Shown piece after piece: positions 7,444 through 56,557 of a DNA stretch of 64,000 nt. The notes under the pieces were generated by a model. That model was not told the origin of the DNA, did not search any database, and saw nothing but the letters and a program-made list of their open reading frames with translations. A program made the translations under genes and the position numbers. Within the stretch, counting starts at the first letter, position 1, and the number at the start of each line of letters is the position of its first letter. The stretch is from Deltaproteobacteria bacterium (GTDB taxonomy: Bacteria > Bdellovibrionota > Bdellovibrionia > Bdellovibrionales > JAMPXM01). Location: NCBI GenBank assembly GCA_017302795.1, contig JAFLCB010000003.1, positions 26,650 through 90,649 of the forward strand, given 5' to 3'.

Positions 7444-7497
7444 GGTACCGCCTACCTTTTGGTAACGCATGCGCGTTACCAAAAGGTAGGCGGTACC
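7444..7497. repeat. palindromic intergenic repeat copy 1 (REP-like, probable bidirectional terminator hairpin)
   Basis: GGTACCGCCTACCTTTTGGTAACGC-atgc-GCGTTACCAAAAGGTAGGCGGTACC has perfect 25-nt arms. It starts immediately after the TAA of the 6865-7443 gene and ends 6 nt before the stop of the convergent HNH gene. Confidence 0.9.
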
Positions 7498-7503
7498 TTC
7501 GGG

Positions 7504-8055
7504 TTAAATGCAGAACTCGTAATCGGATGGGTTGGCAATCGGCGGATTGAATTTCGCGTCCCTAATAGTTTGGATCGCTTCTTCCTGCGTAATTTGCCCG
7601 TTGCTGAGCGCTTTGAAAAGTTCGATTTCTAGATCTTTTCGCAGCTGCTTAACTACTTTTGGTTCTGGCCACAAATTGTCGATGCGATTGGTTCCGCCGA
7701 TTGAAAGCGGAATAAAATGATCGATTGTGTATTCTCTGCGACAGGTTTTCGAAACTCCGTAATCGCGATAGATCTTGTCTTTGTCGCTCGAGCTGACAGC
7801 CCGTTTGCAATACGGGATTTTTTCAGGATAACGATACTCGGCGAAATCGCGGTCGCGTGTAGAGCAAACTGAACCGTTGGTTTTAGTTTCGTCCGGAGTA
7901 AATGGAAAAGCTGTGAAACCGACATTGATTTGTTCGTCCGACCGTTTTTGAACGGTCGTTGCGGCAGATTCTGTCAAAGCCGTGGTCGAGATCAGCGCTA
8001 AAATTAAGCTTGGCAAAACAAACGCGCGCAGCGCACGTTGGAAGCGAAACGACAT
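7504..8055 (-). CDS. secreted HNH-type endonuclease
   Basis: HNH-like core YTIDHFIPLSIGGTNRIDNLWPEP. I prefer the ATG at 8055 (GGAGGG 3 nt upstream). That start gives the signal peptide MSFRFQRALRAFVLPSLILALISTTALTES. The ORF track extends to 8091. Confidence 0.65.
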   Translation of the reverse strand: MSFRFQRALRAFVLPSLILALISTTALTESAATTVQKRSDEQINVGFTAFPFTPDETKTNGSVCSTRDRDFAEYRYPEKIPYCKRAVSSSDKDKIYRDYGVSKTCRREYTIDHFIPLSIGGTNRIDNLWPEPKVVKQLRKDLEIELFKALSNGQITQEEAIQTIRDAKFNPPIANPSDYEFCI

Positions 8056-8152
8056 AGACCCTCCATTGGTCAATTTTATAAGGATGGGCATCTTGCTCGT
8101 CCTTAACTGAAATCGTACTTGGTTTTAAATATTCGTAAAGCGACAAGGAGTG

Positions 8153-8197
8153 CCTGCTACATCTTTGAAACGCACTGCGTTTCAAAGATGTAGCAGG
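8153..8197. repeat. palindromic intergenic repeat copy 2 (divergent subfamily)
   Basis: CCTGCTACATCTTTGAAACGC-act-GCGTTTCAAAGATGTAGCAGG has perfect 21-nt arms, and the right end continues as GGTACC. It lies 15 nt downstream of the stop of the 8212-10425 gene. Confidence 0.8.
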
Positions 8198-8211
8198 TAC
8201 CCCTCGGGGTA

Positions 8212-10425
8212 TTAGCTACGGAGCGACCGGAAGAAAATTTCGGCAAATTTAAGTGCTGTTTGCGGAGCGTGGGCTTTTCGCCAGACTCCTGCTGTGTACT
8301 TTGTCGCTTCAGAATAGGTTGGGTAGGGGTGAATGGTGCCTAGGATTTTCCCCAATCCCAAGCCGTGCTTCATTGCCAATGTGAACTCGGCCAACAGTTC
8401 CCCGGCGTGTGCTCCAACGATAGTTGCTCCTAAAATCTGATCAGAATTTGGCGGCGTCAAAACTTTTACGAAGCCCTCGGCCTTCGAATCCACGATCGCG
8501 CGATCGAGATCATCGAGTTCATACCTTGTGACTTCAAAGGCTATGCCTTTTTCTTTTGCCTCTCGTTCATTCAGTCCGACTCGTGCAACTTCGGGATCGG
8601 TGTAAGTGACGGCGGGGATCACTCGCTCGTCGACTTTGAAACTCCAGTACGGATCAACCAAGGCGTTGACCGACGCATACCATGCCTGATGGGCCGCCGT
8701 GTGAGTGAACTGCCACGGGCCTGCAACATCGCCACAGACAAAAATGTTCGGCATGGATGTTTGCAACGTTTCGCTGCGAGAAATAGTTCCATTCGCTTCG
8801 ATCTCAATTCCCAGCTGTTCAAGCCCAAGGCCCGAAGTGCGCGCGCGCCGACCAAGTGCCACTAAAATACTATCAAATTCTAAGCGGTCCCCATTTTCAG
8901 TGAGGGCTCGCTTTGGAGCAGCCTCTCCTTTTTGAAAGGGGCCAGGTGCTTCGAAGCGAACAATGTTCGTTTGCAGCATCACGCGAACACCATTTTTTTC
9001 TAACGACTTTTGTACGAGGCTCGAAACATCTCTATCTTCTCGGCCTAAAATCGAAGATCCGCGTTCAATCAAAGTGACTTGCGATCCAAGTCTCGAAAAT
9101 GCGAGTGCCAATTCGCAGCCAATGGGACCACCGCCTAAAACCATCATTCGCTTTGGCAGTTCAGCTAGCTGCCACAAGGTTTCGCTCGTTAAGGGACCAC
9201 AATCCCGAAGCCCTTCGATTTCAGGAACGACAGGTGCGGCTCCTGTCGCAATGACGATCGATCTCGAAGTGATAACGCGGGATTTTTTCTGCGCGTCGGT
9301 GACCTCGATCTCCCATGGAGATAAGAGCTTCGCTCGACCGGTTAGGCACTCTACCCCTAGCGCGGTGTAGCGTTCGATAGAGTCGTGAGGTTCGATCGCA
9401 CGAATTTTTTCCTGGACCATGGCCATGACTTTTTGACAGTCGACGGTTTTGGTTTTTAGATCGACGTTGATTCCGTAGGAAGAGCTTGTGTCTACATCAC
9501 GTGCGATTTTCGCAGATTGCAAAATGGCCTTGCTCGGGACGCAACCGGTATTGAGGCAATCACCGCCCATGCGATGTTCTTCAATCAGTGCCACCTTCGC
9601 TTTCGCCACGGCCCCAATGTAACTCGTCACGAGACCTGCGGCTCCTCCGCCGATCGCGATTAAATTGTAATCAAACTTTGGCGGCCGACGAAAGCCATTA
9701 AAGGCGGCGCGACGTTTGTAGATTCGAATCAACAAGCTTGCAATTAGCGGAAAAACTCCAAGTGCCACGAGGCTAGCTAGGATTGTCGGAGAAAGGACTT
9801 CTGAAGGACTGCCGAGAGTCGCAATTTGAGTTCCGGCATTCACGTAGAAAAATGTGCCGGGTAGCATTCCCAATTGGCTCACGAGCGCAAACCGCAATGT
9901 CGAGATACTGGTGAGACCCAAAACAAGATTGACGAGGAAAAACGGAAACACTGGTATCAGCCGAAGAGTGAGAAGGTAAACGATTCCTTCGCGCTTAAGA
10001 CCGTCATTGATTTTTTCCAGAGTGCCACGGAACTTGGCTTCTACGGAAGCGCGCAACAAGTAACGAGTAATCAAAAAACTAAGCGTCGCACCAAGTGTCG
10101 AAGCAAACGAGACGAGGAGTAAACCTTTTCCGAGACCAAAAATCGCTCCACCGGCAAGAGTCAAAACCGTTGCGCCAGGAATAGCCGCCGCGGTAACGAC
10201 GACGTAGGTCGCAAAATAGGTCAGGACAAAAAGCCAAGGCTGGCTTTCAGCTTGAGCCTGAAGCAGATCGCGTTTTGCTTTGAGATTTTCAAAGGTCAAT
10301 TGCGATGTGAGATCACTCGATCGAAGTGCGGCAAAAACCGCCACAAGAATTCCGCCTATGATCAGCCATTTCAACAATGACTTTGCCGTCGAGTGATTTG
10401 TTTGAATTTTCGGCGCGTTAGACAA
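8212..10425 (-). CDS. fusion of a DedA/TVP38-TMEM64 family membrane domain with an FAD-dependent pyridine-nucleotide disulfide oxidoreductase
   Basis: The N-terminal ~230 aa are multi-TM with a DedA-like LRLIPVFPFFLVNLVLG segment. The C-terminal ~480 aa carry the FAD fold IAIGGGAAGLV, the redox-active GGDCLNTGCVPSK, the NAD fold VLGGGPIGCELA and the dimerisation motif IHPYPTYSEA. TTG start at 10425 with GAGAGGA 7 nt upstream. Confidence 0.85.
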   Translation of the reverse strand: MSNAPKIQTNHSTAKSLLKWLIIGGILVAVFAALRSSDLTSQLTFENLKAKRDLLQAQAESQPWLFVLTYFATYVVVTAAAIPGATVLTLAGGAIFGLGKGLLLVSFASTLGATLSFLITRYLLRASVEAKFRGTLEKINDGLKREGIVYLLTLRLIPVFPFFLVNLVLGLTSISTLRFALVSQLGMLPGTFFYVNAGTQIATLGSPSEVLSPTILASLVALGVFPLIASLLIRIYKRRAAFNGFRRPPKFDYNLIAIGGGAAGLVTSYIGAVAKAKVALIEEHRMGGDCLNTGCVPSKAILQSAKIARDVDTSSSYGINVDLKTKTVDCQKVMAMVQEKIRAIEPHDSIERYTALGVECLTGRAKLLSPWEIEVTDAQKKSRVITSRSIVIATGAAPVVPEIEGLRDCGPLTSETLWQLAELPKRMMVLGGGPIGCELALAFSRLGSQVTLIERGSSILGREDRDVSSLVQKSLEKNGVRVMLQTNIVRFEAPGPFQKGEAAPKRALTENGDRLEFDSILVALGRRARTSGLGLEQLGIEIEANGTISRSETLQTSMPNIFVCGDVAGPWQFTHTAAHQAWYASVNALVDPYWSFKVDERVIPAVTYTDPEVARVGLNEREAKEKGIAFEVTRYELDDLDRAIVDSKAEGFVKVLTPPNSDQILGATIVGAHAGELLAEFTLAMKHGLGLGKILGTIHPYPTYSEATKYTAGVWRKAHAPQTALKFAEIFFRSLRS

Positions 10426-10535
10426 TGGAGCGTCCTCTCGTTGTCGACTCTAGGTCGCAGCTGAAACTTTATCGCGATGACCGATAGCACAACAAGCTGT
10501 GTGTTGGCACAAACCGTGATTAATTCCCGGATAAG

Positions 10536-11261
10536 ATGAACTTAAATGCGGACAAAGTAGAAAAATCTTGGCAGGCAGTCCTCGGCGACGAATTTGAAAC
10601 GACCCACATGAAGGCGCTGGGCGATTTCCTTCGCTCTGAAACGGAAAATGGCCTCTCGATATTTCCAGCGGAAAAAGATGTTTTTGCCGCGTTTACCGCG
10701 ACACCCTTCGACAAGGTACGCGTCGTGATCTTGGGGCAAGATCCCTACCATGGAGCCGGGCAGGCGCACGGACTTTCGTTTTCTGTGGAGGCTGGAGTTC
10801 GTCTTCCGCCATCCTTATTGAACATCTACAAAGAGCTCGAATCAGATCTCGGAATACCGCGAGGGAAGTCCGGCAGTTTACGAGAGTGGGCCAATCAAGG
10901 AGTGCTGCTGCTTAATAGCGTGCTGACGGTGAGGGAAAATCAAGCGGCCTCTCATCAAAGACGAGGATGGGAGCAATTTACCGATCGAGCGATCAAAGAG
11001 CTTGCCGACCGCCGAGAGGGAATTGTTTTTATTCTTTGGGGTGCTTACGCACTGAAGAAAGCGGCATTTGTTGATCGGAGTAAGCACCGGGTCATTGAAT
11101 CTGTTCATCCGTCGCCACTGTCGGCATCTCGCGGTTTTTTCGGCAGCCGACCATTTTCAAAAATTAATCAGTACTTCGCGTCTCGAGCTGAACCGCCCAT
11201 CGATTGGGCGGCCCACATCCGGCAAGAAACAGAAAAAGAAAAAAACACCGTCACGGCATAG
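10536..11261 (+). CDS. ung: uracil-DNA glycosylase (family 1)
   Basis: Motifs GQDPYHGAGQAHGLSFSV and HPSPLSASRGF. There is a short K/E-rich C-terminal tail. Confidence 0.93.
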   Translation: MNLNADKVEKSWQAVLGDEFETTHMKALGDFLRSETENGLSIFPAEKDVFAAFTATPFDKVRVVILGQDPYHGAGQAHGLSFSVEAGVRLPPSLLNIYKELESDLGIPRGKSGSLREWANQGVLLLNSVLTVRENQAASHQRRGWEQFTDRAIKELADRREGIVFILWGAYALKKAAFVDRSKHRVIESVHPSPLSASRGFFGSRPFSKINQYFASRAEPPIDWAAHIRQETEKEKNTVTA

Positions 11262-11278
11262 CCGTATCCGGGCGAAAG

Positions 11279-12340
11279 CTATTTGCCCTGCGGAACGACC
11301 ACGGTTCCGTCGAATGCTTCGCCGCCCTTTGCGCCGCCAAGGTTCCGGAAGTGCAAAGTCATTCTGTCCCCTTTGCGCCAACCTCGGATGGATGCTTCCT
11401 TTTGTGCTGGGGTGAAATCAATCGTGATTTCTTTTCCATCCGTGTCGATATAAGTGATATACGCCGTGTTGCCATCGATACTGGATACGGTCGCAGGCAG
11501 TGTATAGCTTTGGGTGCCCCACCAGACATAGCCAAGTGCGCCCGTTGCTGCGGCAGACATCAGCATCATGCCGGTTTTTGTTTTTAAAAAGTTTGGCCGT
11601 GTTGAGGATTGAAGGTCGACACTGCGAATTGGTCCTACGCCTTTCGCACTCGTGATCGGCTGGCCTTGGGAAACAGCTTGTGAGGCCATTTCTGCAGAAG
11701 GTGCGGCGGCAGAAGATACTTTGCTTGCCGCGCCAAGCGGAAACCCGGTGATCGGATCAGCAGGGTTCGCCTCTGCGTATTTACGGAAGCGGCCGGGAGT
11801 TAAAAGCGACGGATTGCCAGCGCCACAACGGGGGCAGCTGACCATTGTTTGGAATGCAGAAGAGTTGCAATATTCGCAGGTCCAGTGCTTTCCGGACCGA
11901 GCATATTTCTTCGTCGCATCCCCATCGCGTGCGAGTGCTTCAGTGTAGATCAGGTGAATTCGGCCGGCGGCATCCGTAAAGTGGTCTGGCAAAATTCTTG
12001 GCTCAAGCCGATCGTCTTTGGAGTGCGGTTTTCCGCAGTTAGGACATTCCTGACTGCCATTTGCGTTGGGCCTTAACGAAACAATACGTTTTTCACCACC
12101 ATCGCGGCACTGCTTGCACTCGTACATGTGCCAAACGTCATCGCCCGGTTTTAAAATGACTTCGATTCGGCCGCTTGGAACTTTTCCGTCAGAAGGAATA
12201 ACGGTAAATGACTGATCGTCGCATTCACTTGCCGCCGCATGATTCGGTGATAGCCCGGAAGAACTGATAAACAAAAATATTCCGAACGCGAGCAATGCTT
12301 TCAGCGCAATATCGCTGAACTGGTTGAATATTTGTTTCAT
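11279..12340 (-). CDS. membrane-associated double zinc-ribbon protein, unknown function
   Basis: 353 aa. N-terminal signal/anchor ALKALLAFGIFLFISSS. There are two CxxC...CxxC units (CKQC...CPNC and CEYC...CPRC), a second hydrophobic segment GMMLMSAAATGALGYVWWG, and a ~75-aa C-terminal domain. The ATG at 12340 overlaps the upstream stop (ATGA). Confidence 0.7.
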   Translation of the reverse strand: MKQIFNQFSDIALKALLAFGIFLFISSSGLSPNHAAASECDDQSFTVIPSDGKVPSGRIEVILKPGDDVWHMYECKQCRDGGEKRIVSLRPNANGSQECPNCGKPHSKDDRLEPRILPDHFTDAAGRIHLIYTEALARDGDATKKYARSGKHWTCEYCNSSAFQTMVSCPRCGAGNPSLLTPGRFRKYAEANPADPITGFPLGAASKVSSAAAPSAEMASQAVSQGQPITSAKGVGPIRSVDLQSSTRPNFLKTKTGMMLMSAAATGALGYVWWGTQSYTLPATVSSIDGNTAYITYIDTDGKEITIDFTPAQKEASIRGWRKGDRMTLHFRNLGGAKGGEAFDGTVVVPQGK

Positions 12341-12906
12341 CGTCCACCTCCGTTAAGCATTCCGTGAGTCATAACGTGGTTTGACTGGGTTGCTCGCGAG
12401 ACGACCGGAAGAAACAGCATCCGGCGGGCCGCTCGTTTTTTATCGTCAGCAATTAAAACACTTCGGCGTTCTTTCATTGTTTTTTCAAGACGCTTGAATT
12501 CGGCCTTTGTGTTTCCTAAGAACGACGAATTCCCGGTTCCCAACGCCGCGACCAGCGGCTTGATTGCAGAATCAAAATCTTGATCAGCACCATACTCGCC
12601 GAAAAACTGAAGACGGGCAGCAAGTGCGGGGAAGACATTCTGCCTTAGAGTCTGGTCTTTCTCAGCCGCAAGGTCAGTCGCCATTGCGCCTACCAAAGCG
12701 CTTCCCGTGGTTGGCTGATCTAAACTTTCGGCAAGATCCAAGACAACCGCACTGACAAGTGTATCGGTAAGCTCTTTGTTCGAATTTCCAATGGCCTTAA
12801 GAATTTGAAGTTTGGATCTCGTCGTTGAAGCAAGCGCGAGTGCTTTTAAGTTTTCCGCGCCACCGACGAACTCAGAACTCTGCTGTTCATGCAAATCGCG
12901 AGGCAT
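12337..12906 (-). CDS. hypothetical protein (predicted helical)
   Basis: 189-aa ORF. Its ATG follows the stop of the upstream 12907-15315 gene with no gap, and its TGA overlaps the downstream ATG. I recognise no motif. Confidence 0.6.
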   Translation of the reverse strand: MPRDLHEQQSSEFVGGAENLKALALASTTRSKLQILKAIGNSNKELTDTLVSAVVLDLAESLDQPTTGSALVGAMATDLAAEKDQTLRQNVFPALAARLQFFGEYGADQDFDSAIKPLVAALGTGNSSFLGNTKAEFKRLEKTMKERRSVLIADDKKRAARRMLFLPVVSRATQSNHVMTHGMLNGGGR

Positions 12907-15315
12907 CTAAGTGACCGTCCCGGATCCTTCGCGCGAGCCGACCGCCGTTACGATAACCGTTCCAAGCTGGTACTTTCGATATATGTCATCGTTTTCTTGA
13001 ATAACTCCGCTTGAGACCATTTCAAGGCTAAACTTCTCGCCTGGAGCGGCTGCTTCCAGCGCCTTACGAAGCTCAGCGGCCCGGATTTCGAATTCGCTAG
13101 ATGACGGTTCGAAAAACGCTTCAATTTCGACGGGAACGACGGTTTTAGTTCCGCGCACATTGGACAAGGGCTTTTCTTTTTTGAGTCGCGCTAAAAATTC
13201 TTTGTAGGGGACGGTTTCGCTCGCTTCCGTTTTTCCAAGGAGGGTAAACAGATGCCGATTTCCATCGGCGACATTGCCGCCGACGAAATAAAATCTTGTT
13301 CCGTTTTCAGCTAGAATTTTTAGGATCTCACTGGAATCAAACTGATCATGTGGAACCGCCGCACGATCGTTATTTTGAAACCGATTGTTCATCACGATGA
13401 TAGTCTTATTTTTATAAAGACTAGCGATCGTCGATCCGGAGGTTAAGTTCTGGAACAAATGAAGAGGTCCTTGGTAGGCAAGATCCCAGACATCGACTTT
13501 CATTCCCAGTTTTTTTGCTAGCCCAAGCCAAGCTAAATATTCCTCTCGCTTGGTCCCACTATTGGTGACCAGCAGCCAGTTTGAGTCTTTATGGCCGCCA
13601 AAGGTTTGCGCGATGGAAAATTTAAAGCTGCGAAGCTGAATCTCTTTTTCGGATCCGTTCGAGCCAAGAGTTTTCAGCGTAGCCCCCGTATGTACATCAA
13701 TAGTTGTGTAGGGAAGGTGGTTGTCGTCGAATTTTAATTTGCCCTTAACAACGAAGCTGGCTCCCGGTGCGAGCAGCGCGATGGATTGGGCAAACGTCGA
13801 AGCGAGTGAGGTGCCATCGAAGCTGATTCCGCCTGGCAGATCTTCGGTCGCAGGACGCCACTGGCGTATCGATGTTGAAAGTGCACGAGCTTCAGCGGAA
13901 CTTATGCCGACAGCGGTTCGGGAAAGGTTTTTTACGGACCACGATACATCTACGATTTCGCCAGGACTTACGGCGTTTCGCTTTGTCTGAAGTGGTGTGA
14001 TCTCAACAGGATAGGAAATGACTAACGTCTTTGGCAGCTGAAGGCCGCGCGGCGTGCGATCAATACGCGTGATTCTTCCAATTGGTACAATCGCTTCCGA
14101 AAGCGCAAGGCGATTTTCTGAAACAGGAAGTTGGTTATCGCGAATTCTGAATCGGAATACTTTCCCCAATGTTGTCGAAGATCGACCGTTCACAGCGGGG
14201 ATTTCGAGTTCGATAGGTTCCGCTGTGATCCAGTTCGAAGCACCTAACGAAAGAAGCGCTTTTGCCTTCCCAGGAATCCAAGGCATATCGCTTTGATTTT
14301 GAACCACGAGATCGGTCACCTCAACAACTTCGCCCGGCTCAAAGACGCCGTTCGCATTTGACTCTCGAAACGAGAAGGAAGTGAGGCGTAGGTCTATGGT
14401 GTCTCGGTAAATCGTAGTTCCGGTAGGTCCACTGACGACGAACTGATAGCTTCCTTTTCCGCCATTGCTTCCGCCAGTGATCGTGCCGCGCCCAGTGGAT
14501 CCGTCGCTGCCATCTGGTCCATCACTAGCGCCAGGCCGACTCTCGTTTCGAGTATCGTCCGTACAATCACCTTTTACGACACGAGAAGAACCATTGCCGT
14601 TGTCTTCAAAGCTATCGGGTGCGCAGGTTTGGGTTCCAGTTTTTTCCGTCCAAGAGGCGCCACTCCCGCCGCGTCCACCGTCGCCGCCTTCGCCTCCGCG
14701 ACCGTTGTATCCTGGGTCGCCGCCTCGGCCGCCTTCAACTTCAAAACCGACAAGCATTGAGAGGTGAAGATCTTCTGCCGCAAGTTTCACGGTGATTTTT
14801 CCACCGGTTCCGCCATCAGACCCGCGTGTTCCGCCTCCGCCGTTGCCGCCGTCTTCGCCACGGCCACCACTTGTCGCCGCTGAGTATTGACTAGCGTCGC
14901 TTCCGCTCGATCCGTCACTTCCATCGCGACCGTCGGCTCCGCGCCCTCCGTTTCCACCGCGCCCGCCATTGGCGCGAAGGTGGAGTGAAACATTCGGAGA
15001 AATTTCGAGACCATCTTGGACACCGCGATTTCCGACAGTTCCAACAATTTGCATGATCGCTTTTCCGCCGCGATCGAGGTCAGATAACGACAATGAAATG
15101 TCTTTGCCGTCTTCTCCGGCCGTCGAAGCTGTGGCACTTCTTCCGCTCCAGCTTTCTCGACTTCCATCACTGCCGTCGCGCCCGGAAGAGTCGTATGAAG
15201 CAGCGTAACTGGAAAATGATTGCGAGAGGATTGAGGTCGCGACAGAAGCCGCGACGATGCCAGTAAGCCATACCTGATGTCGCGCACGGTTCGGGCGTTT
15301 CTTCGTGTTTGTCAC
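12907..15315 (-). CDS. large secreted glycine-rich protein with Ig/CARDB-like repeats and an unknown C-terminal domain
   Basis: The ORF track begins at TTG 15387. I prefer GTG 15315 (GGAGA 5 nt upstream). That start gives the signal-like VTNTKKRPNRARHQVWLTGIVAASVATSILSQSFSSYAAS. About 240 aa of G-[RDNSE]-G low complexity follow (GGRGGNGGRGADGRDGSDGSSGSD, GGRGEDGGNGGGGTRGSDGGTGG, GGRGGDPGYNGRGGEGGDGGRGG). Next come PGE..V...V.N-type beta-sandwich motifs (FEPGEVVEVTDLVVQNQS, VSPGEIVDVSWSVKNLS), then a ~230-aa C-terminal domain (NWLLVTNSGTKREEYLAWLGLAKKLGMKVDVWDL...). Confidence 0.75.
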   Translation of the reverse strand: MTNTKKRPNRARHQVWLTGIVAASVATSILSQSFSSYAASYDSSGRDGSDGSRESWSGRSATASTAGEDGKDISLSLSDLDRGGKAIMQIVGTVGNRGVQDGLEISPNVSLHLRANGGRGGNGGRGADGRDGSDGSSGSDASQYSAATSGGRGEDGGNGGGGTRGSDGGTGGKITVKLAAEDLHLSMLVGFEVEGGRGGDPGYNGRGGEGGDGGRGGSGASWTEKTGTQTCAPDSFEDNGNGSSRVVKGDCTDDTRNESRPGASDGPDGSDGSTGRGTITGGSNGGKGSYQFVVSGPTGTTIYRDTIDLRLTSFSFRESNANGVFEPGEVVEVTDLVVQNQSDMPWIPGKAKALLSLGASNWITAEPIELEIPAVNGRSSTTLGKVFRFRIRDNQLPVSENRLALSEAIVPIGRITRIDRTPRGLQLPKTLVISYPVEITPLQTKRNAVSPGEIVDVSWSVKNLSRTAVGISSAEARALSTSIRQWRPATEDLPGGISFDGTSLASTFAQSIALLAPGASFVVKGKLKFDDNHLPYTTIDVHTGATLKTLGSNGSEKEIQLRSFKFSIAQTFGGHKDSNWLLVTNSGTKREEYLAWLGLAKKLGMKVDVWDLAYQGPLHLFQNLTSGSTIASLYKNKTIIVMNNRFQNNDRAAVPHDQFDSSEILKILAENGTRFYFVGGNVADGNRHLFTLLGKTEASETVPYKEFLARLKKEKPLSNVRGTKTVVPVEIEAFFEPSSSEFEIRAAELRKALEAAAPGEKFSLEMVSSGVIQENDDIYRKYQLGTVIVTAVGSREGSGTVT

Positions 15316-15695
15316 AGAGCTCTCCGTCAAAAAAATGAACGCGTTTGTTGCCGCGATGCCATAAGGCCGCCTGTAGCAGATAGGCAAAGTTCGTTCCCGG
15401 ATTGTAAGGCCTAGCGGGTTGTCGAACTCTTAGACGATGCTTGTACAGGGGTGAGTAAGATTGCACGTCAAAGGGACTGACGAGCAATCGACCTGGCATG
15501 CTCGCCCCGGCCTAAGCCGGCGAATGTCATTCATCAGCGTCGTTCGGCAGTGGAAACAAGCCGGAAACTGTGACTTGCGCGGCTGTGCAACACGTCAATT
15601 AGAGTGCTGGCTTTGACGAGAGTTGAATCATTGAGACAAATTTAGCCTCTGCAGGTAAGCGGGCTGGCAATTAACAAATGCGGGAGGATTTTCGC

Positions 15696-21736: not shown

Positions 21737-22769
21737 CCGTCTACCGCGTAAGAAGATCGATAAATCGTTCTACCGACAGGTCGAGCCGAATCAAACAATT
21801 GTCATCTATGATCGCCGGCTTCCCGAACATGTTCCCGGATTTAGCCAGTGGCTTCTTCAATTTCCTTACGTCTTTGCCGTTCGGTCAGGAGAGTCGCTAA
21901 AGTCCGTCGAAGCATTCAATGGTTTTCTTTCTAAAGTGCATCGCAAAGTAGGTGGGCATGCAAACCCAAGTTGGACAGTTCTCGCCATTGGCGGAGGATC
22001 CGTTGGAGATTTCGCCGGATTTTTTGCCTCCGTTTACAAGCGCGGCTTGAAACTTGTGCATTTACCAACGACGTGGCTTGCGGCTCTGGATTCCAGCCAC
22101 GGCGGAAAAACCGGGCTTAACTTTCAAGGGGCAAAAAATCAAATTGGTACTTTCTATCCGGCTGACGCAACCGTCATGGTTCGTTCCGTATTGATGGCCT
22201 TGCCGCAAAAGCATTTGCTAGACGCCCTCGGCGAACTACTTAAAATCGCGATCATCGATGGCAGCCCATGGGTAAAAAAAATGCGCTTAGACCGCGGTTC
22301 AGCTTCGGCGCTAGCTCGTGAAGTTTGGAAATTTCTAAAGCCCGCCGTCGAAGCCAAATTGAAAGTTGTGAGGCGAGATCCGCTAGAAAAAACCGGCGAA
22401 CGTCACCGCCTGAATCTCGGTCATACCTTCGGTCACGTCATTGAAGGAGCAACTGGCACTTCTCACGGAATCAGTGTTTGGCTGGGACTCCAGTTTGCGA
22501 TTGAGCTAAGTCTAGAAGAAGGCATTCTAAATCCAAAGCGCGGAGCTGAGCTTCTTACGTGGCTTGCGAAACAAAGTGCTATGGGATTGGTGCAAAGACC
22601 GCGGCTGAAAAGGCAAACTGCTAGAAGGTTAATTAAGACGGACAAGAAACGAACTGGTTCCGATAAAGTTCGATTTGTCTTCGTGAAAGGGCTGGGACAA
22701 ACCGAAGTGCGGGAAATTTCGATCGAAAGATTACTGTTGGCGGCCAAAGAAAATGGATGGTTTCGATGA
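21711..22769 (+). CDS. aroB: 3-dehydroquinate synthase
   Basis: GGGSVGDFAGFFASVYKRGLKLVHLPTTWLAALDSSHGGKTGLNF and LNLGHTFGH motifs. The 5' end overlaps the ATPase gene by 26 nt, and the 3' end overlaps the next ORF. Confidence 0.9.
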   Translation: MESVRLYLDRLPRKKIDKSFYRQVEPNQTIVIYDRRLPEHVPGFSQWLLQFPYVFAVRSGESLKSVEAFNGFLSKVHRKVGGHANPSWTVLAIGGGSVGDFAGFFASVYKRGLKLVHLPTTWLAALDSSHGGKTGLNFQGAKNQIGTFYPADATVMVRSVLMALPQKHLLDALGELLKIAIIDGSPWVKKMRLDRGSASALAREVWKFLKPAVEAKLKVVRRDPLEKTGERHRLNLGHTFGHVIEGATGTSHGISVWLGLQFAIELSLEEGILNPKRGAELLTWLAKQSAMGLVQRPRLKRQTARRLIKTDKKRTGSDKVRFVFVKGLGQTEVREISIERLLLAAKENGWFR

Positions 22770-25700: not shown

Positions 25701-25891
25701 CCGGCAAAGATCGCGGCGAATGGCACTCCTCGTGGAAACCAAAGTTAGTTTTGGATTTGTCCTACACAGATGATTCTGCTGCAAGAACGCTGGCGGTTGA
25801 AATCGGCGCCAAGTATATTTCGGGCTTGTCAATGTTTCGTGCCCAGGCGCAAGGGCAGCGGGAATTCTGGAGCTCACGGTTAATTCAGTAA
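22757..25891 (+). CDS. tetrafunctional shikimate-pathway fusion: EPSP synthase / shikimate kinase / type I 3-dehydroquinate dehydratase-like / shikimate dehydrogenase
   Basis: Single 1044-codon ORF. AroA-like region, aa ~1-396 (nt 22757-23944): LNRALIL, ESGTGLRFL, SGETSQFLSALLLAA, KESDRISE, DHRLAFA. AroK-like region, aa ~399-560 (23951-24436): LLGHRGTGKT, DLDREIE. AroD type I-like region, aa ~575-790 (24479-25126): MEVRDD, IVSFRNP, ASWHGDF, AMKLAA, MSKSGSRARWSW. AroE-like region, aa ~808-1044 (25178-25888): LGDPVHHSRTPLEHD, AVTSPLK, TDEPGF, WGGGGIKQS, GLSMFRAQAQGQREFW. An alternative start at ATG 22766 gives an ATGA overlap with aroB. Confidence 0.85.
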   Translation: MVSMIRVQRPFYFRGRIPLSKSWLNRALILKSIHNQIRILDWEPSELDGEDVLALDHALKDLAAGKTDFFIAESGTGLRFLLARLSILNGQFSVRGTEKLLSRPLDELVRILDLLGCKIEKKSSTELSVSASGWPDKALSLKVASGETSQFLSALLLAASHRSPGQGVEPIEILEPEDPVSAGYIEMTKDLVDQVAVKGRRVLVPEVDASSAATLGALVIAGNRAENIDFVRTELGFFKDQVEKTKQPDRVFFEFVRDFLTSDSRREFNLKSAPDLFPIMSALGALQPNGVRLAGAPHLRLKESDRISEIVKLLRLIGISVEEYPDGIETKSVSAELRSEWRRRTELAFPYIYQPPADHRLAFAATVLSAAGVPIELVGRGMVAKSFPTFWSIVEGDGPKVALLGHRGTGKTEASRRWAHLLGARATAVDLDREIERLCGRSVRELFEKDGEGEFRFYEKKAFGEMDEESRRRVGAFLVACGAGFDASRIDQSWQKIWLRRATDEDGRVFFGRPRLDPDISPIEESKKRYFERTAKYALASNRIFDLAEGDGDPSEQFWVRDLFDEDSLSGLGGTISLIPEMHLGSAMERYLRWGVARMEVRDDFFPHDQFGLVWARINELVKDLPTNRIIVSFRNPLETDRTITFLEGVIQQEGFGGITVDWPFEITKELPARLKSIIRHPKVDFIASWHGDFGNLELDKFIELERSLFKDFSLEQSRPKVAMKLAATINSFDELQILHAWVRQSTGSRVLLPMSKSGSRARWSWYRLLRGSRVPMGLSFWRDGNGTSVDQPTFSQWWRRERFADVNRFAAVLGDPVHHSRTPLEHDSFFTSLGMPVFAIQISREEAETALPFLADLGLVAAAVTSPLKELVCKHLNVSMTVCASGTAANNVSGNAVNTLVRSESGWLATATDEPGFRALWTEAKQSFSQINFSSSTVLWGGGGIKQSVLNVVPHAIPIRASLGPAVSEVAIQPEIVIWASGKDRGEWHSSWKPKLVLDLSYTDDSAARTLAVEIGAKYISGLSMFRAQAQGQREFWSSRLIQ

Positions 25892-25900
25892 GGGGAGTAC

Positions 25901-26974: not shown

Positions 26975-26980
26975 CCCGGA

Positions 26981-27034
26981 GGTACCTCCTACATTTTGGT
27001 AGCGCGGGCGCGTTACCAAAATGTAGGAGGTACC
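26981..27034. repeat. palindromic intergenic repeat copy 3
   Basis: GGTACCTCCTACATTTTGGTAgcgcgggcgcgTTACCAAAATGTAGGAGGTACC sits between the convergent stops of aroC (26974) and menG/ubiE (27041). Confidence 0.9.
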
Positions 27035-27040
27035 TTTGGG

Positions 27041-40672: not shown

Positions 40673-40720
40673 CGGTCTGATCTCCGGAGTCCGGCCCCGA
40701 AGGGACGGAGTAAATGGGAA

Positions 40721-41938: not shown

Positions 41939-42025
41939 AGTGGGCATGAGGTTAAAGGATTGTCCCTCGTTTATCAATGCAGCAACGCGTTTGCGTATTT
42001 TGAAAAATGCCACTAGGGATAGGCC

Positions 42026-43360: not shown

Positions 43361-43365
43361 CCAAA

Positions 43366-43419
43366 GGTACCTCCTACATTTTGGTAACGCACATGCGTTA
43401 CCAAAATGTAGGAGGTACC
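43366..43419. repeat. palindromic intergenic repeat copy 4
   Basis: GGTACCTCCTACATTTTGGTAACGC-acat-GCGTTACCAAAATGTAGGAGGTACC has perfect 25-nt arms. It lies 5 nt after the purD stop, between convergent genes. Confidence 0.9.
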
Positions 43420-43460
43420 TTTTAGCAGCGCAGGCCCAAGCCGAAGCGACACACATAGAA

Positions 43461-44303
43461 TTACCAGTTTAGGCGAAGACTGATCATGTCTCGCTTTTCA
43501 TCCGGGCGATTACTGTGGCTGTAAACAAGCTTTGAATCTTGTGACAATGGTTCGAAGATTTCGAGATCTGTGCTTCGTGCCGCAACCGAATAGCTGAGCT
43601 CTGCATTCGTAAGGCCGCGGTACTCCATGCTAGCTTTCGTTTGCGATGCCTTCATTTGAAACTTGATATTGTGTTGAGTGGAATCCGGCTCTTCACCGCC
43701 GAGAGCTACTTCCGCTTTCATTTTTTCTTCGACGGTCACTGCCGCTCGGCCGAATGCTGTGTTTCTCACGCTCTCTTGCTTGAAGAAGCTTGAAACTGAA
43801 TGATCAAGGACCTGGGCCGCAACTTGACCGCCATCAGTTACTGGGGAAAGTGAACTAGGCAAAATCAAACTATAATCGGTACCGATGGTTTCGACGCGAT
43901 CGATGGTTCGGAAATCGATTCCCCGCGAAAAATCTGAAATGTCTTTTGAAAGCCTAAATTTCTCTTTTGCTGTCTCGCCAGGTGCAAGCAGCACATGAGA
44001 CGTTGCTTCGGATTCTTCCCGCGATTGGGATTTTGGCCCGAAGACAGCGGGATTCATGCGCATCATCGCCGGACGTCGCATTTTAAGAATTGAAAGAGTG
44101 TTCGTGACGTCGCCTTCGTAGATTAAAAATCCTAACGAGAATGTGGTGACGAGAAACAAGGTCGCAACGAACACATGCGACGCCACTTTGCACAAAAATC
44201 TATTCCGCGCGCAAAGCCTGCCCGGTGCAGTACTGCTAGCAACTGTATCTGGTTCGGTTGAAATTTTGCGATCTTCTTGGCGTTCATTCATCTGATTGAC
44301 CAT
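43461..44303 (-). CDS. hypothetical membrane-anchored/envelope protein
   Basis: The ORF has one hydrophobic segment (VASHVFVATLFLVTTFSLGFLIY) and an aromatic C-terminus ...MISLRLNW. The start is uncertain: TTG 44339 in the track, ATG 44303 or ATG 44291. Confidence 0.55.
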   Translation of the reverse strand: MVNQMNERQEDRKISTEPDTVASSTAPGRLCARNRFLCKVASHVFVATLFLVTTFSLGFLIYEGDVTNTLSILKMRRPAMMRMNPAVFGPKSQSREESEATSHVLLAPGETAKEKFRLSKDISDFSRGIDFRTIDRVETIGTDYSLILPSSLSPVTDGGQVAAQVLDHSVSSFFKQESVRNTAFGRAAVTVEEKMKAEVALGGEEPDSTQHNIKFQMKASQTKASMEYRGLTNAELSYSVAARSTDLEIFEPLSQDSKLVYSHSNRPDEKRDMISLRLNW

Positions 44304-44338
44304 CCTGCTCTCTATAGGGAGCAATTCAGGTGCCAGCA

Positions 44339-44433
44339 AATTGTGACGGATCTCATTAAATGCCTGTCAGGACAGGTTTATTCCGGTTTGGTGGGGTACC
44401 ACCGTACCGGAATGATACGCTGTCGTCACAATT
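44339..44433. promoter_or_regulatory. nested inverted-repeat element in a divergent intergenic region (operator or structured leader; function unknown)
   Basis: The outer inverted repeat is AATTGTGACG (44339-44348) / CGTCACAATT (44424-44433). It encloses CCTGTC-ag-GACAGG (44363-44376) and the hairpin ATTCCGGT-tt-GGTGG-ggta-CCACC-gt-ACCGGAAT (44380-44413). Confidence 0.35.
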
Positions 44434-44478
44434 ATTAGTTTACTGACATGTGTATGAAAATCAGCCAGTTTTCTAGAC

Positions 44479-45132
44479 ATGCAAGACACCAAAGCAGAAC
44501 TGAAAACTGAGTCCTCGCAGATTGATAGCGCTACAGAAATTTCTGTTTCCCGCGATGCATTTTCCAGCGGCCAGGTCGGCAGTAAGATGTGGTTAGCGCA
44601 ACTCCTCGAAACACTCGCGCCGGCCTACTCAGCGAGCGGACCGCACACGGTTTGGATCTATGGTGGATGGCAGGGAGTCATGGGATTTATTCTGCTTTCC
44701 CGCCAAGCTTCGCGAGCAGATTTCCAAATAGAACGGGTTCGAAGTTTTGATATTGATGATCGCGCCACAGAAGCCGCTAATCTGATTTGCGAGAACTGGG
44801 TTTGGCGAGAATGGACTTTTCGAGCATTCACAAAAGATTGTGACCAGCTTCAGCCTCAGGACGCCGCTGAATATGGTCCAAGTCCCACGGTCGTTATAAA
44901 CACGTCGGTTGAGCATTTTGATAATCGGAATTGGTTCGAGAATATTGCAGAAGGAACGATTGTCGCTCTTCAAGCTTCTGATTTCGAACACGAGGGCGCT
45001 GTCGCATTAGCTAAGTCCGATGAAGCTTTCGCCGAAGCATTTCCACTTCGCGAGGTTTGGTTCACGGGTGCGCTTGATTTCAATTACGATAGCTGGAGCT
45101 TTAAGCGGCGCATGCGCATCGGCCGTAAATAG
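44479..45132 (+). CDS. hypothetical protein (possibly Rossmann/methyltransferase-like fold)
   Basis: 217-aa ORF. There is weak resemblance to class I methyltransferase strand order (VWIYGGWQGVMG, VRSFDID, VVINTSVEH), but no canonical SAM motif. Confidence 0.5.
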   Translation: MQDTKAELKTESSQIDSATEISVSRDAFSSGQVGSKMWLAQLLETLAPAYSASGPHTVWIYGGWQGVMGFILLSRQASRADFQIERVRSFDIDDRATEAANLICENWVWREWTFRAFTKDCDQLQPQDAAEYGPSPTVVINTSVEHFDNRNWFENIAEGTIVALQASDFEHEGAVALAKSDEAFAEAFPLREVWFTGALDFNYDSWSFKRRMRIGRK

Positions 45133-45148
45133 CTCGCTGCCGCCACAA

Positions 45149-45202
45149 GGTACCGCCTACATTTTGGTAACGCATGTGCGTTACCAAAATGTAGGCGGTA
45201 CC
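45149..45202. repeat. palindromic intergenic repeat copy 5
   Basis: GGTACCGCCTACATTTTGGTAACGC-atgt-GCGTTACCAAAATGTAGGCGGTACC has perfect 25-nt arms. It sits between convergent stops at 45132 and 45203 and abuts the latter. Confidence 0.9.
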
Positions 45203-45778
45203 TTATGGTGCGAGGTGCCTTATGGCAAAACAGTTCGGACCGAATTCACCGGCGCTCGGATCCTTCTCTCCGATCCACGGCCCAACCCTTTGGAAACCCA
45301 TTTTCTCATAGGCAGGCATGGCGCTTTTGCGCGGAAAAGTCCACGCAACCTCACACCCGGTTCGCTTCGCCTCGGTAAAAGCAGCGTTCATAACGGCACT
45401 CGCGGCACCTAAGCCCCGAAACTCTGGAGCAACGTAAAGTCCACGCGTGCGAAAGCTGCGCATGAGATTGGCGGAATCGGAGTTTTGAACATTCGGCGCG
45501 GGAATGAGGCCACCAAAATGACCGCTGAGCACGGCGATCACGGACGGTTCAGGTTCATTAATTTTTTTTTTCGACACGAGAATTCGCCAAAACGACGCTG
45601 GCTCCTGCATCAGCTGGAGGTCTATACCGCCCAGCCACTTCATTGCACTATTGGACTCGATTTTGGAGATGCGACCGGGCCAAAGCTTTGCTTGCCAAAT
45701 TGGAAGTACGTCTTCAAAACGACACTCTTCCAACACGGCCGCAACCTGATTTCCAAGCGTGAGGCCCGTTGCCGCCAT
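45203..45778 (-). CDS. GNAT-family N-acetyltransferase
   Basis: Acetyl-CoA binding region RTRGLYVAPEFRGLGAASAVMNAAFTEAKRTGCEVAW...AMPAYEKMGFQRVG. The start is set at ATG 45778, which avoids overlap with the upstream regulator. The track ORF extends to 45838. Confidence 0.75.
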   Translation of the reverse strand: MAATGLTLGNQVAAVLEECRFEDVLPIWQAKLWPGRISKIESNSAMKWLGGIDLQLMQEPASFWRILVSKKKINEPEPSVIAVLSGHFGGLIPAPNVQNSDSANLMRSFRTRGLYVAPEFRGLGAASAVMNAAFTEAKRTGCEVAWTFPRKSAMPAYEKMGFQRVGPWIGEKDPSAGEFGPNCFAIRHLAP

Positions 45779-45785
45779 CGAAGAG

Positions 45786-47357: not shown

Positions 47358-47534
47358 CGCGACGCAGTCCTTTCGTCGGAATACATTTTTCTATCGAGAA
47401 AGCGCGGGGGACTGGAAATCCGCTCCAGTCAAGCGTCCGCCGCTTTGCGCTTCTCATCTATAATGCTAAGGACTCGGCGAAAGAGGTGTCAAATTTTCGC
47501 CGTCAAAGAATTGGTCTACGTCAGAAAACTGGTC

Positions 47535-51060: not shown

Positions 51061-51192
51061 CGATCATCCGCCGAATGTTTTTCGGTCCATATTCATTGTG
51101 CGTCCCAGGAGGGCGCTTGTCGAGCGCCAAACTGTGCCTTGAATGTTTCATGCTGCTTGCGGAATGTGGGCACAGGCCCTAATTTCTTGGGG

Positions 51193-52578: not shown

Positions 52579-52610
52579 ACCGAAGTTCAGTCGATTGAGG
52601 AGTTTCAGTT

Positions 52611-54473: not shown

Positions 54474-54535
54474 TGCCAGAATAATCCCCGAGCGGCGCAC
54501 CTGTAGAAAATAGTTTCCGCTTCTGGACGCTAGCG

Positions 54536-54562
54536 AGCGTGATTCAGTTTTGGAATCACGCT
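54536..54562. terminator. 10-bp hairpin between glmS and the deacetylase gene
   Basis: AGCGTGATTC-agttttg-GAATCACGCT. It lies 63 nt after the glmS stop and 12 nt before ATG 54574. There is no U-tract, so it could be a terminator or a translational/regulatory hairpin. Confidence 0.3.
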
Positions 54563-54573
54563 ACGCTATCAAA

Positions 54574-55929
54574 ATGAAAATCCGCACTTTATTCCGTTCA
54601 AGTTCCGTCTGCACTACCGCATGGTTTTTGACGATCGCGTCGGCGTCGGCTGCGACCGTTGATTTCCCAGGTCAGCCCCTTGAAATCGTTAAGGCCTATC
54701 GCTATCTCGAGGCAAGGTCGGCCGATTTCACTTTGGAATTCGACACAGAACTGGATTCAAAAAAAGGCAATGTCTTGAATACGAAACTCTACGCTCGCCT
54801 TTGGGCGACAAGAGTTATTCGCGAAGAGGCGGCTCACAAGCTCGCGGAATCTATGCTTCGCACGGCCATGGTGGTTAGAACTCCAGAAGGCCACACAGCC
54901 TTTCGCAACGCAGAGGCTCGGAAAACAGAAGCCGATGTTTTCAACGAGCTGTCTCAGCAATACATTTCTGGCCTCCCACTTGTTGACGACGTCATAGAGG
55001 CGTTAGGGCACATGGATGCAGAGGCGATGACCGCAAAATACAAAGAGGTTCATCGAGATCTGTTGGCGCGTGTTCCCAGTATTTATAAGGCCGAAAGAAG
55101 GGCGAAATTCGAGAACAATTGGGGACAAGATTCCGAAGTTAGCGATTGGCGAAAGCGGGCGAAGACAGAGGCACCGGCAGCGATCATAAAATCGATGGAT
55201 GATGCCATTCGTCGCTACGCCAGATCGCAATACAATTCTACGCGTGAGCCAGCATCTACGCGCACAACGGCCGCTGCCGGACGTTATGGGCCGTCGACAG
55301 GCGCGACTGGAAACCTCACGGGTCGCGAATTTCCAAGCAAAATGTGGGCGCTGACTTATGACGACGGCCCGGCAAAACAAACAGACGAAATTCTGACAGC
55401 TCTTGCGAAACGAAACATGAAGGCCACATTTTTCTGGCTTTCGAAAAATGCTCCGAGCTATGCGACAACAGCCGTCGCAAGGGCAAAAAATGAAGGCCAT
55501 GGGCTTGCGAATCATTCGGCGACCCACGCCCAATTGACAAAGGTGTCTTCGGCCGCTCTTGATCGCGAAATTTTAAGTTCAACGTCGGACCTTGAGGCGA
55601 TTTACGGGCAAAAGCTTGGTTTTTTCCGGCTGCCTTATGGCGCTGGACGAAATGACACATCCATTCGTACGCGAATTGAAAAAGCGGGACTTGTTCACGT
55701 TTATTGGAATGTCGACACGCTCGATTGGCAGGACCGAAATCCTACGACGGTCTATCAGCGGACGATGAAGCAAGTGAACCAACAGGGACGTGGCGTGATT
55801 TTGTTTCATGACATTCACTCGCAAACTGTCACGGCATCGGCCCGGGTGATGGACGATTTAAAATCACAAGGTTCGCGAGTCGTGACTATGCAGGAAGCAC
55901 TCTCGGTCTTGAACGGAGAGATCCCGTGA
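54574..55929 (+). CDS. secreted polysaccharide (peptidoglycan-type) deacetylase, CE4/NodB domain with ~230-aa N-terminal domain
   Basis: Signal peptide MKIRTLFRSSSVCTTAWFLTIASASA. NodB motifs LTYDDGP, ANHSATH, FRLPYGAG and VILFHDIH lie in the C-terminal ~200 aa. Confidence 0.85.
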   Translation: MKIRTLFRSSSVCTTAWFLTIASASAATVDFPGQPLEIVKAYRYLEARSADFTLEFDTELDSKKGNVLNTKLYARLWATRVIREEAAHKLAESMLRTAMVVRTPEGHTAFRNAEARKTEADVFNELSQQYISGLPLVDDVIEALGHMDAEAMTAKYKEVHRDLLARVPSIYKAERRAKFENNWGQDSEVSDWRKRAKTEAPAAIIKSMDDAIRRYARSQYNSTREPASTRTTAAAGRYGPSTGATGNLTGREFPSKMWALTYDDGPAKQTDEILTALAKRNMKATFFWLSKNAPSYATTAVARAKNEGHGLANHSATHAQLTKVSSAALDREILSSTSDLEAIYGQKLGFFRLPYGAGRNDTSIRTRIEKAGLVHVYWNVDTLDWQDRNPTTVYQRTMKQVNQQGRGVILFHDIHSQTVTASARVMDDLKSQGSRVVTMQEALSVLNGEIP

Positions 55930-56498
55930 TCCAAGTTTTCATAAAAAATAATTCTTTCATCGCCCTAGCGGCTCTTTTTCTTTCGGCCGGCTGTGCGACC
56001 AGTACGCCTCGTCAAGAGCCCGCGCCTGTTGCCACACCTCTGGAAAAAACTTTGGCGGAACTATCATTGAAAGAACTCGATCAGGCCGCCCTTTTTTTTC
56101 GGGTCGCTTTTGATAAATCGCTCGAGAGCTGGCAGGGGGCAGGGGATCAGACTCTAGCGGGTTGCAAAGTTTCTGGGGAAAAGGCCGAAAACGCGTTAGC
56201 GGAAATTCGTCCTTGGCTTGATCGGCGCGCAGCAGAAGAGGCACGGCGGGTTGTCGAAGCCCCTAAAACATATCGCCTCCCGATCGACGAGGCGGCTTGC
56301 GCGCAGGATTGTTCCTGCGGTTTAGGTTTGCGTGTTTTGGAGGCGGCGGAACTTGAAAAACAGAGCCATTCCCGAGTGAAGGATCTAAAGAAGCTTCGCT
56401 CGAAGCTAGAGGCCAAAGTGGAGTTAATTTCAGCTGAACGGGCCGAGTTTTGTGCTGAAACAATGACCTGGATCTGTACCTCAGGCCTCCTGAAGTAA
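55926..56498 (+). CDS. lipoprotein, unknown function
   Basis: GTG start in a GTGA overlap with the deacetylase stop. Lipobox ALFLSAGC. The helical mature part is cysteine-containing. Confidence 0.6.
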   Translation: MIQVFIKNNSFIALAALFLSAGCATSTPRQEPAPVATPLEKTLAELSLKELDQAALFFRVAFDKSLESWQGAGDQTLAGCKVSGEKAENALAEIRPWLDRRAAEEARRVVEAPKTYRLPIDEAACAQDCSCGLGLRVLEAAELEKQSHSRVKDLKKLRSKLEAKVELISAERAEFCAETMTWICTSGLLK

Positions 56499-56506
56499 GC
56501 CCGGTC

Positions 56507-56557
56507 GTACCTCCTACAATTTTGAAACGCAGCGCGTTTCAAAAATGTAGGAGGTAC
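56507..56557. repeat. palindromic intergenic repeat copy 6 (TTTGAAACGC subfamily)
   Basis: GTACCTCCTACAATTTTGAAACGC-agc-GCGTTTCAAAAATGTAGGAGGTAC has 24-nt arms with one A.A mismatch. It lies 8 nt after the lipoprotein stop and upstream of manC. Confidence 0.85.

Follow-up and report, generated by a model that had tools for sequence, protein, structure and literature searches.

A probable lineage-specific family of REP/REPIN-like hairpin repeats adjoining stop codons in a Bdellovibrionota genome

The stretch of 64,000 nt analyzed here (the window; Deltaproteobacteria bacterium, assembly GCA_017302795.1, contig JAFLCB010000003.1, positions 26,650 to 90,649), which originates from a metagenome-assembled genome (MAG) of the Bdellovibrionota (proteins MBN85398xx) with relatives among Bdellovibrionales/Pseudobdellovibrio, contains six related palindromes with arms of 25-29 bp, an unpaired centre of 1-4 nt and a total length of 54-60 bp. 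This six-copy feature is real and lies well beyond chance. With a probability of roughly 0.6, it represents a lineage-specific family of small non-coding hairpin repeats within a Bdellovibrionota clade, i.e. non-autonomous mobile DNA resembling the repetitive extragenic palindromic (REP) sequences and the hairpins formed by their inverted doublets (REPINs), and the most suitable reading is that of a hitherto undescribed variant of such repeats with a simple architecture. The evidence comes from mirrored differences between the arms, from different variants residing at identical junctions in close relatives and from sites that are empty in more distant ones.

The 18-nt arm motif matched the window 14 times, against 0.32 matches expected from shuffled sequences; 12 of these were both arms of the six copies, while the remaining two carried two mismatches, which corresponds to chance level. 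A search with a covariance model based on nine distinct copies recovered exactly the six window copies at 66-87 bits, with the next best match at 10 bits, and revealed no solo arms, half copies or decayed copies in the window; nor was any solo arm present in the loci of relatives. The predicted RNA hairpins of the six copies had energies of -41 to -57 kcal/mol (z from -9 to -15). All six palindromes listed in the initial annotation were present at their positions, with several details of the proposed design requiring correction. The GGTACC cap occurs at both ends of copies 1, 3, 4 and 5, but copy 2 is bounded by GAGTGCC/GGTACC and copy 6 by CGTACC/GGTACG; the palindrome is perfect in copies 1, 4 and 5, but copies 3 and 6 have one mismatch each and copy 2 has two; and the unpaired centre, described as a loop of 3-4 nt, in fact comprises 1-4 nt. 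Independent Logan assemblies break inside copies 3, 4, 5 and 6, which indirectly suggests that identical arms are present elsewhere in the genome or the community; copy 3 was identical across six independent assemblies, whose contigs terminate there. A Logan contig upstream of the window (L026, 20210-20296; L numbers designate the related loci and contigs throughout) ended at a tRNA-Leu(CAG) gene without a palindrome, so that the repeat family does not cause every assembly break in this genome.

Differences between copies had been described as mirrored in both arms, and an alignment of the nine distinct copies bore this out: 13 of 30 stem pairs varied on both sides, with 91.9% of the cells paired. 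The observed covariation values were reached by none of 500 shuffles, and pairing fell to 38-46% when the partner was shifted by 1-3 columns. Seven of the ten kinds of paired changes were transversions, such as G:C to T:A and T:A to A:T, and the residual mismatches (G.T, A.C, T.T and A.A) displayed no wobble bias. Being rich in transversions and free of wobble intermediates, this covariation is unlike that of RNA stems, which is wobble-mediated and transition-rich, and fits DNA copying rather than stepwise RNA compensation. The GTAC cap, CTAC, TTTG and AACGC are conserved across genera, and the arm sequence is kept even between genomes otherwise without detectable nucleotide similarity (L007 and the window). 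The unpaired centre is hypervariable, with seven different centres in nine copies.

The most direct information was obtained from orthologous sites. The copy-1 site of the window has the same junctions as its orthologue in L029-L031, a lineage with 85-87% identity to the window: TAACCCGA borders one end, and at the opposite end the stop codon of the convergent gene abuts the cap. The resident palindromes nevertheless belong to different subfamilies: A-type GGTACC-GCCTAC-C-TTTTGGTAACGC in the window and B-type CGTACC-TCCTAC-A-TTTTTGAAACGC in L031. Ten of the 50 stem positions differ, making up five exactly mirrored pairs, against 9 of 87 positions in the flanks. Of the five derived (A-type) states of copy 1, three to four recur in copies 3, 4 and 5 of the same genome, and the L029 palindrome at this site is nearly identical to copy 6 of the window; the copies of one genome resemble one another more than they do their orthologues. 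Comparison of the copy-2 site with L029-L031 revealed two mirrored pairs together with two unmirrored changes in the decaying cap, and single-arm mutations occurred solely as strain polymorphisms (L029/L030 against L031). Even among strains 97-98% identical to the window (L014, L015 and L016), copy 5 differs by two mirrored substitution pairs, and a 15-bp stretch directly to its left (GCTCGCTGCCGCCAC, 45132..45146) is missing in all three, making an indel at the palindrome edge; copy 4 is identical in the 98% strain L014. Since compensation in place cannot yield the same linked states at several loci and would lag behind flank divergence, these sites show palindromes that were overwritten or homogenized as whole units, both arms together, at persisting junctions. 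The copying of whole palindromes, which the initial annotation had offered as an alternative to selection on a hairpin, is thereby favored by the different variants at the same junctions, by the mirrored differences and by derived states matching paralogous copies.

A peculiar junction was observed in the same lineage at position 1-65 of L030, corresponding to L029 4391-4455 and L008 2148-2212, where contigs encoding an identical HNH-like protein part exactly at the left cap. L030 and L029 share the palindrome and everything to its right, and the left flank of L030 is the 3' end of another gene, 89% identical to a gene for a 412-aa protein in L008, with its TAG stop 1 nt from the cap. This junction arose either when two copies of the palindrome were rearranged or when the assembly became chimeric by passing through the repeat.

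Beyond L029-L031, family copies were found in a Bdellovibrionales MAG (L008, 1467-1517) and in a Pseudobdellovibrio MAG (L007, 4660-4712), the stop codon of the downstream gene overlapping the cap in the latter. The L007 copy is directly preceded by a separate, canonical bidirectional terminator (AAAAGCCAGGGTTAACCCTGGCTTTTTT; 4632-4658), which in turn follows a gene for a homologue of topoisomerase VI subunit A/Spo11 (3456-4616). A degenerate palindrome pattern matched two loci in the genome-contig collection and the strict full-palindrome pattern none, so that this collection evidently lacks the window's own genome; the metagenome-contig collection gave no match with either the full pattern or single-arm scans, and no match to the palindrome was found in viral contigs or in the plasmid and phage collections. 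In relatives with ~70-76% identity (L009-L011, L021 and L025), the syntenic DNA (20.7, 9.9 and 21.6 kb) contained no family copy. Where copies 4 and 5 lie in the window, such relatives have convergent genes that abut or overlap without a palindrome between them (the two genes overlap at the copy-4 site of L025, and the copy-5 site is empty in L021, L022 and L025). At the copy-3 site of the ~73% relatives L009-L011, three extra genes are present instead of the palindrome. No substitute hairpin was detected at the empty orthologous sites of copies 3, 4 and 5. Comparison of orthologous intergenic regions, suggested at the outset as a check, showed lineage-specific insertion, the sites being empty in more distant relatives.

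The extra genes at the copy-3 site (L009 10742-12705, likewise in L010, L011 and a JGI contig) encode proteins of 101, 316 and 134 aa without Pfam matches and lie between ubiE/menG and aroC; homology of these relatives to the window ceases precisely at both stops. Since the flanking proteins have alignable C-termini in every lineage, the stops between which the element sits are the natural ones. On the same grounds, an insertion that truncated overlapping convergent genes and supplied their stops was rejected, all the more as the arm contains a stop codon in just one reading frame. The idea that the genes between copies 4 and 5 are the cargo of a composite transposon was likewise discarded, these genes being syntenic in palindrome-free relatives. 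A different palindrome was found in the ~72% relative L022 (2949-3017), with 31-bp arms (GGGTACCCGGTTCTTTTTTGAGAAGCG...) sharing the GGTACC cap and a T-run/GA motif. It is located 1 nt past the glmS stop and 10 nt ahead of the Shine-Dalgarno sequence of the next gene, and scores 49 bits with the covariance model, generic long hairpins likewise gathering tens of bits.

Housekeeping genes are densely packed in the window, intergenic DNA making up 5.8%. Each of the six copies lies 0-10 nt from at least one stop codon, within the 0-15 nt initially described, and four of them (copies 1, 3, 4 and 5) are placed between convergent genes, a number likewise given at the outset. Four of the eight convergent junctions are thus occupied (P=0.005 by junction count and 4e-5 by spacer length), against none of the nine divergent spacers. 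Almost all of the spacer behind a stop codon, or between two of them, is taken up by the palindrome, and the four occupied convergent spacers would measure just 6-46 nt without it. The ~82 kb of genome scanned, made up of the window with extensions of 8 kb upstream and 9.4 kb downstream, contain the six copies solely at extragenic positions 3' of genes. A 162-aa open reading frame beside the L008 copy, if real, would place that copy in a divergent spacer and make it a possible exception to the stop-codon rule. Avoidance of a KpnI-type restriction site was ruled out as a background for the caps, since GGTACC occurs seven times outside the elements against ~3.9 expected.

Copy 1 (7442..7499, A-type, centre ATGC) has a perfect 27-bp stem with a hairpin energy of -52.6 kcal/mol (z -11.5) and a covariance model score of 84 bits; it lies 0 nt from the TAA stop of 6853..7443(+) and 6 nt from the stop of 7504..8055(-). 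Copy 2 (8146..8204, 80 bits), a B-type variant TGCTAC-A-TCTTTGAAACGC with C as its centre and its left cap decayed to GAGTGCC, lies 10 nt past the stop of 8212..10425(-) and ~95 nt upstream of the start of the HNH-like gene 7504..8055(-). This gene for a secreted protein is flanked by a palindrome on both sides in every lineage readable on both sides, its counterparts being located at L029 4572-5129, L030 182-739 and L031 140-697. In the segment further downstream, ~4.3 kb of the window (11217-15583), with genes for 353-aa, 189-aa and 826-aa DUF7932 proteins, are missing from the 85-87% relative L029, in which the UDG gene directly neighbours the gene for a peptide-binding protein at that place.

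Copy 3 (26975..27040, A-type) has a single G.T mismatch, with G in the left arm and A in the right arm at that position, and is situated 6 nt from the chorismate synthase stop on one side and 6 nt from the stop of a UbiE/MenG methyltransferase gene on the other; the outer CCCGGA/TTTGGG lengthens its RNA pairing to 31 bp, with an energy of -57.2 kcal/mol. The same part of the window encodes two fusion proteins, an AROM-like one of 1044 aa with EPSP synthase, shikimate kinase and shikimate dehydrogenase domains (22757-25891) and a MenF-MenD-like one of 952 aa combining a chorismate-binding enzyme with a ThDP enzyme (28906-31764). Copy 4 (43363..43422, A-type, 87 bits) consists of perfect 29-bp arms around a CA centre, the stops of purD and of 43461..44303(-) being 5 nt and 41 nt away, respectively. 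Copy 5 (45143..45208), an A-type palindrome of the G variant with TG as its centre, abuts the stop of a GNAT gene with its right cap (0 nt) and lies 16 nt from the stop of 44479..45132(+). Copy 6 (56506..56558, 72 bits) is of B-type, CGTACC-TCCTAC-A-(A/T)TTTTGAAACGC, with an AGC centre and one A.A mismatch, and is placed 8 nt past the stop of 55926..56498(+), upstream of a manC-like gene.

Two further observations were made around copies 4 and 5. An imperfect 34-bp palindrome (ATTCCGGTTTGGTGGGGTACCACCGTACCGGAAT, 44380-44413), centred on GGTACC, lies in the spacer of a divergent gene pair, both genes being of unknown function, and is kept in all strains L014-L018; its sequence is unrelated to the six-copy family and it may be an operator. 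The centres of A-type copies (43383-43398, 45166-45181 and 7461-7476) read TGGTAACGCA..TGCG, with GG and GC spaced like the -24/-12 elements of a sigma-54 promoter (TGGCAC-N5-TTGC), and a sigma-54 activator gene is located 600 bp from copy 5; this weak resemblance is probably coincidental.

For the preferred explanation, a REP/REPIN-like mobile family, we propose that the element would be handled as a folded single DNA strand by an enzyme with sequence specificity whose gene would lie in another part of the genome. The likeliest candidate would be an HUH/Y1 transposase of the RAYT (REP-associated tyrosine transposase)/IS200 kind, favored because such enzymes excise precisely and reinsert at a fixed target, so that sites are reusable. 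It would recognize the conserved positions (GTAC cap, CTAC, TTTG and AACGC) and excise, insert or overwrite copies at such sites, while selection would remove insertions in coding sequences and promoters, so that copies in 3' spacers alone would survive. When transcribed, the 25-29-bp RNA hairpin probably has a secondary role as a 3'-end barrier or an RNase III substrate, and effects on mRNA, including interference with translation termination at abutting stops, are plausible by-products. Several findings weigh against this proposal. No transposase of any kind was found either in the window, where the previously reported lack of a RAYT was confirmed by the lack of Pfam Y1_Tnp matches, or in ~250 kb of related loci; REPINs, in contrast, are accompanied by a cognate RAYT that is flanked by the repeats. 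Among the loci there is no recent empty site that would reveal the ends of the element, its target site and any target-site duplication. The arms form no REP-like sub-hairpins, so that the clover form proposed for recognition of REPINs by RAYTs is unavailable. The density of copies is uneven, the adjoining 8 kb upstream and 9.4 kb downstream containing no further one. Finally, mirrored changes could also be made by transposase-free conversion of arm to arm, either by mismatch repair in an extruded hairpin or by replication of hairpin-capped breaks. The gene enclosed by copies 1 and 2 was considered as a RAYT candidate and dismissed, since it encodes a secreted HNH-like protein with a signal peptide and without a Y1_Tnp match.

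The primary nature of the palindromes had alternatively been suggested to be that of bidirectional terminators. In its broader form, this explanation assumes host-selected terminators or 3'-UTR RNA hairpins, in which selection on RNA pairing keeps the stem and the resemblance between copies results from descent or convergence. It accounts for the placement of all copies 0-10 nt from a stop and the occupation of half of the convergent junctions, as well as for the high stability of the RNA hairpins, and the outer stem of copy 3 becomes fully paired on just one strand, by way of G.U pairs. However, the T-runs noted on both strands do exist but are merely 2-4 T long, and a G+C-rich stem-loop with an immediate U-tract (scanned as a stem with at least 5 T in 8 nt) was found for copy 4 alone, on both strands, the other five copies having 2-3 T. 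Moreover, terminator-like sites are not enriched in the window (35, 28 and 33 found against 27, 29 and 30 expected). Terminators do not need the conservation of primary sequence seen across genera; the covariation consists mainly of transversions without wobble intermediates; and the palindrome diverges at least as much as its flanks and is nevertheless mirrored, while two-hit compensation under selection would be slower. The empty orthologous sites without an alternative hairpin, the L007 copy adjoining a canonical terminator and the L022 palindrome inserted between a stop codon and the Shine-Dalgarno sequence of the next gene fit it equally poorly, and we regard such an origin as rather unlikely. 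Somewhat doubtful to a similar degree, and marginally more so, is a mechanism new to bacterial repeats, in which a sequence-specific enzyme or a repair route acting on the extruded hairpin rewrites resident GGTACC-capped palindromes in place, arm onto arm and copy onto copy, without a RAYT; the elements would then change at an approximately neutral rate and still stay perfect, and the L022 palindrome would represent a second specificity.

Maintenance without any transposase would imply old sites, at which extrusion followed by intra-strand mismatch repair, or a break followed by replication of the hairpin-capped ends, copies one arm onto the other. Mirrored differences at fixed junctions, the hypervariable centre (seven variants among nine copies), the 15-bp indel at the edge of copy 5 and the synteny break or chimera of L030 exactly at the palindrome are all in line with it, but it leaves unexplained the derived states common to non-orthologous copies of one genome, the arrival at sites empty in relatives and the cross-genus conservation of specific bases. 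As a complete account it is therefore unlikely; such a route could contribute to arm identity, though not to the spread of the family or to the sharing of states between loci. An equally unlikely option is a minimal miniature inverted-repeat transposable element (MITE), in which the two terminal inverted repeats of a DDE-type insertion sequence would abut each other and which would be moved in trans by cut-and-paste as double-stranded DNA. Two inverted arms of 25-27 bp with almost no interior, conserved GGTACC outer ends and a lineage-specific distribution would agree with this origin, but inspection revealed a direct target-site duplication at none of the six copies (the element ends being undefined), the AA...TT flanks are inverted, a parent insertion sequence with such ends is absent from the window and the loci, plasmid and phage collections contain no matches, and a DDE mechanism explains neither the strict arm identity nor the overwriting at unchanged junctions. 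If the elements served a dimeric DNA-binding protein, for instance of the nucleoid, partition or regulatory type, their dyad symmetry would be accounted for, and the GGTACC caps are each a 6-bp palindrome, ~48 bp apart, in six copies clustered within 50 kb. Half-sites bound independently, however, need not covary as Watson-Crick complements, the promoter-containing divergent spacers lack the elements, and the order of half-sites is everted relative to parS, which makes a function of this kind highly improbable. Sites of the parS, dif/pdif, attC and telomere-resolvase types were ruled out on architecture, i.e. half-site order, spacer length, perfect pairing and copy number. Rfam gave no match at gathering level in the window, the sub-threshold ones being generic miRNA-precursor hairpins (26-42 bits against thresholds of 67-100).

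Few non-coding features of bacterial genomes are as common as REPs and REPINs, and how they spread and persist is debated. To our knowledge, nearly all of the evidence on them comes from Pseudomonas and enterobacteria, and no description of palindromic repeats or RAYTs in Bdellovibrio was found in the literature searched. The family described here provides a very clean case from a distant phylum, with a single near-perfect hairpin and few variable positions, in which mirrored changes at fixed orthologous junctions directly show that resident copies are rewritten as units instead of drifting. If the enzyme is found, it would allow the overwriting of REPIN-like elements by their transposase to be tested and would show its minimal substrate; a rewriting process independent of RAYT, if true, would raise the interest of the system from moderate to high. 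On the practical side, the palindromes break short-read assemblies of the genomes of these predators, and, lying flush against stop codons, they could affect translation termination and mRNA 3' ends.

The position of the elements has a parallel in E. coli, whose REPs located within 15 nt of stop codons reportedly (Liang, Rudd & Deutscher, 2015) cause ribosome stalling and lower protein output; a stable hairpin directly after the stop is common to both, with the cap abutting the stop at several copies here, while the hairpins of the present family are twice as long and perfect. Bidirectional intrinsic terminators similarly share the place between convergent stops, the dyad symmetry and the A/T flanking the stem, but the stem here is 2-4 times longer than usual and is followed by just 2-4 U, its sequence is common to unrelated loci and genera, and the element is missing at orthologous junctions of relatives. 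MITEs such as the Correia elements of Neisseria are also small, non-coding, intergenic, bounded by terminal inverted repeats (TIRs) and often co-transcribed with their neighbours, although they measure 100-150 bp and have an internal region and a TA target-site duplication, neither the duplication nor the internal region being seen here. The HNH-like gene flanked by palindromes is superficially similar to a REPtron, but its product has a signal peptide and no HUH domain.

The initial comparison with REPs and bacterial interspersed mosaic elements (BIMEs) holds for whole-unit copying and lineage-specific insertion, but not for the classical REP/BIME architecture. REPs of the GTAG and CGTC superfamilies are extragenic imperfect palindromes of 20-40 bp, present many times per genome, with a stem of 5-13 bp and an unpaired terminal GTAG or CGTC (PMC3733652), while the stems of the present family are 25-29 bp long, the invariant CTAC...GTAG is a fully paired part of the stem and GGTACC or CGTACC forms the termini. 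Nevertheless, these REPs and the TIR repeats found near TIRYT genes (Di Nocera et al. 2013, PMC3733652) are likewise located mainly downstream of coding regions and form subfamilies with alternative complementary stem residues, and they include CGTC families without a known transposase as well as self-complementary TIR families. In a REPIN, two REPs in inverted orientation, both forming a short hairpin, are combined with a spacer to an overall length of 70-110 bp (Bertels & Rainey 2011, PMC3116915). Here, one uninterrupted stem of 25-29 bp encloses a centre of 1-4 nt, and an arm by itself does not fold (-0.6 to -4.1 kcal/mol, z from -0.9 to +0.6, no better than shuffled sequences); solo REP-like remnants are absent, and the host belongs to the Bdellovibrionota. 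On the other hand, compensatory changes are known from REPINs (PMC3116915), and REPINs at conserved extragenic sites 'may be overwritten' (bioRxiv 10.1101/2024.10.14.618302, REPORTH preprint); in the present family, both compensatory changes across the hairpin and type changes at conserved sites were found. The palindromes thus have in common with RAYT-associated REPINs the nature of long, repeated extragenic hairpins with two-sided compensatory changes, forming lineage-specific populations whose members switch type at conserved sites.

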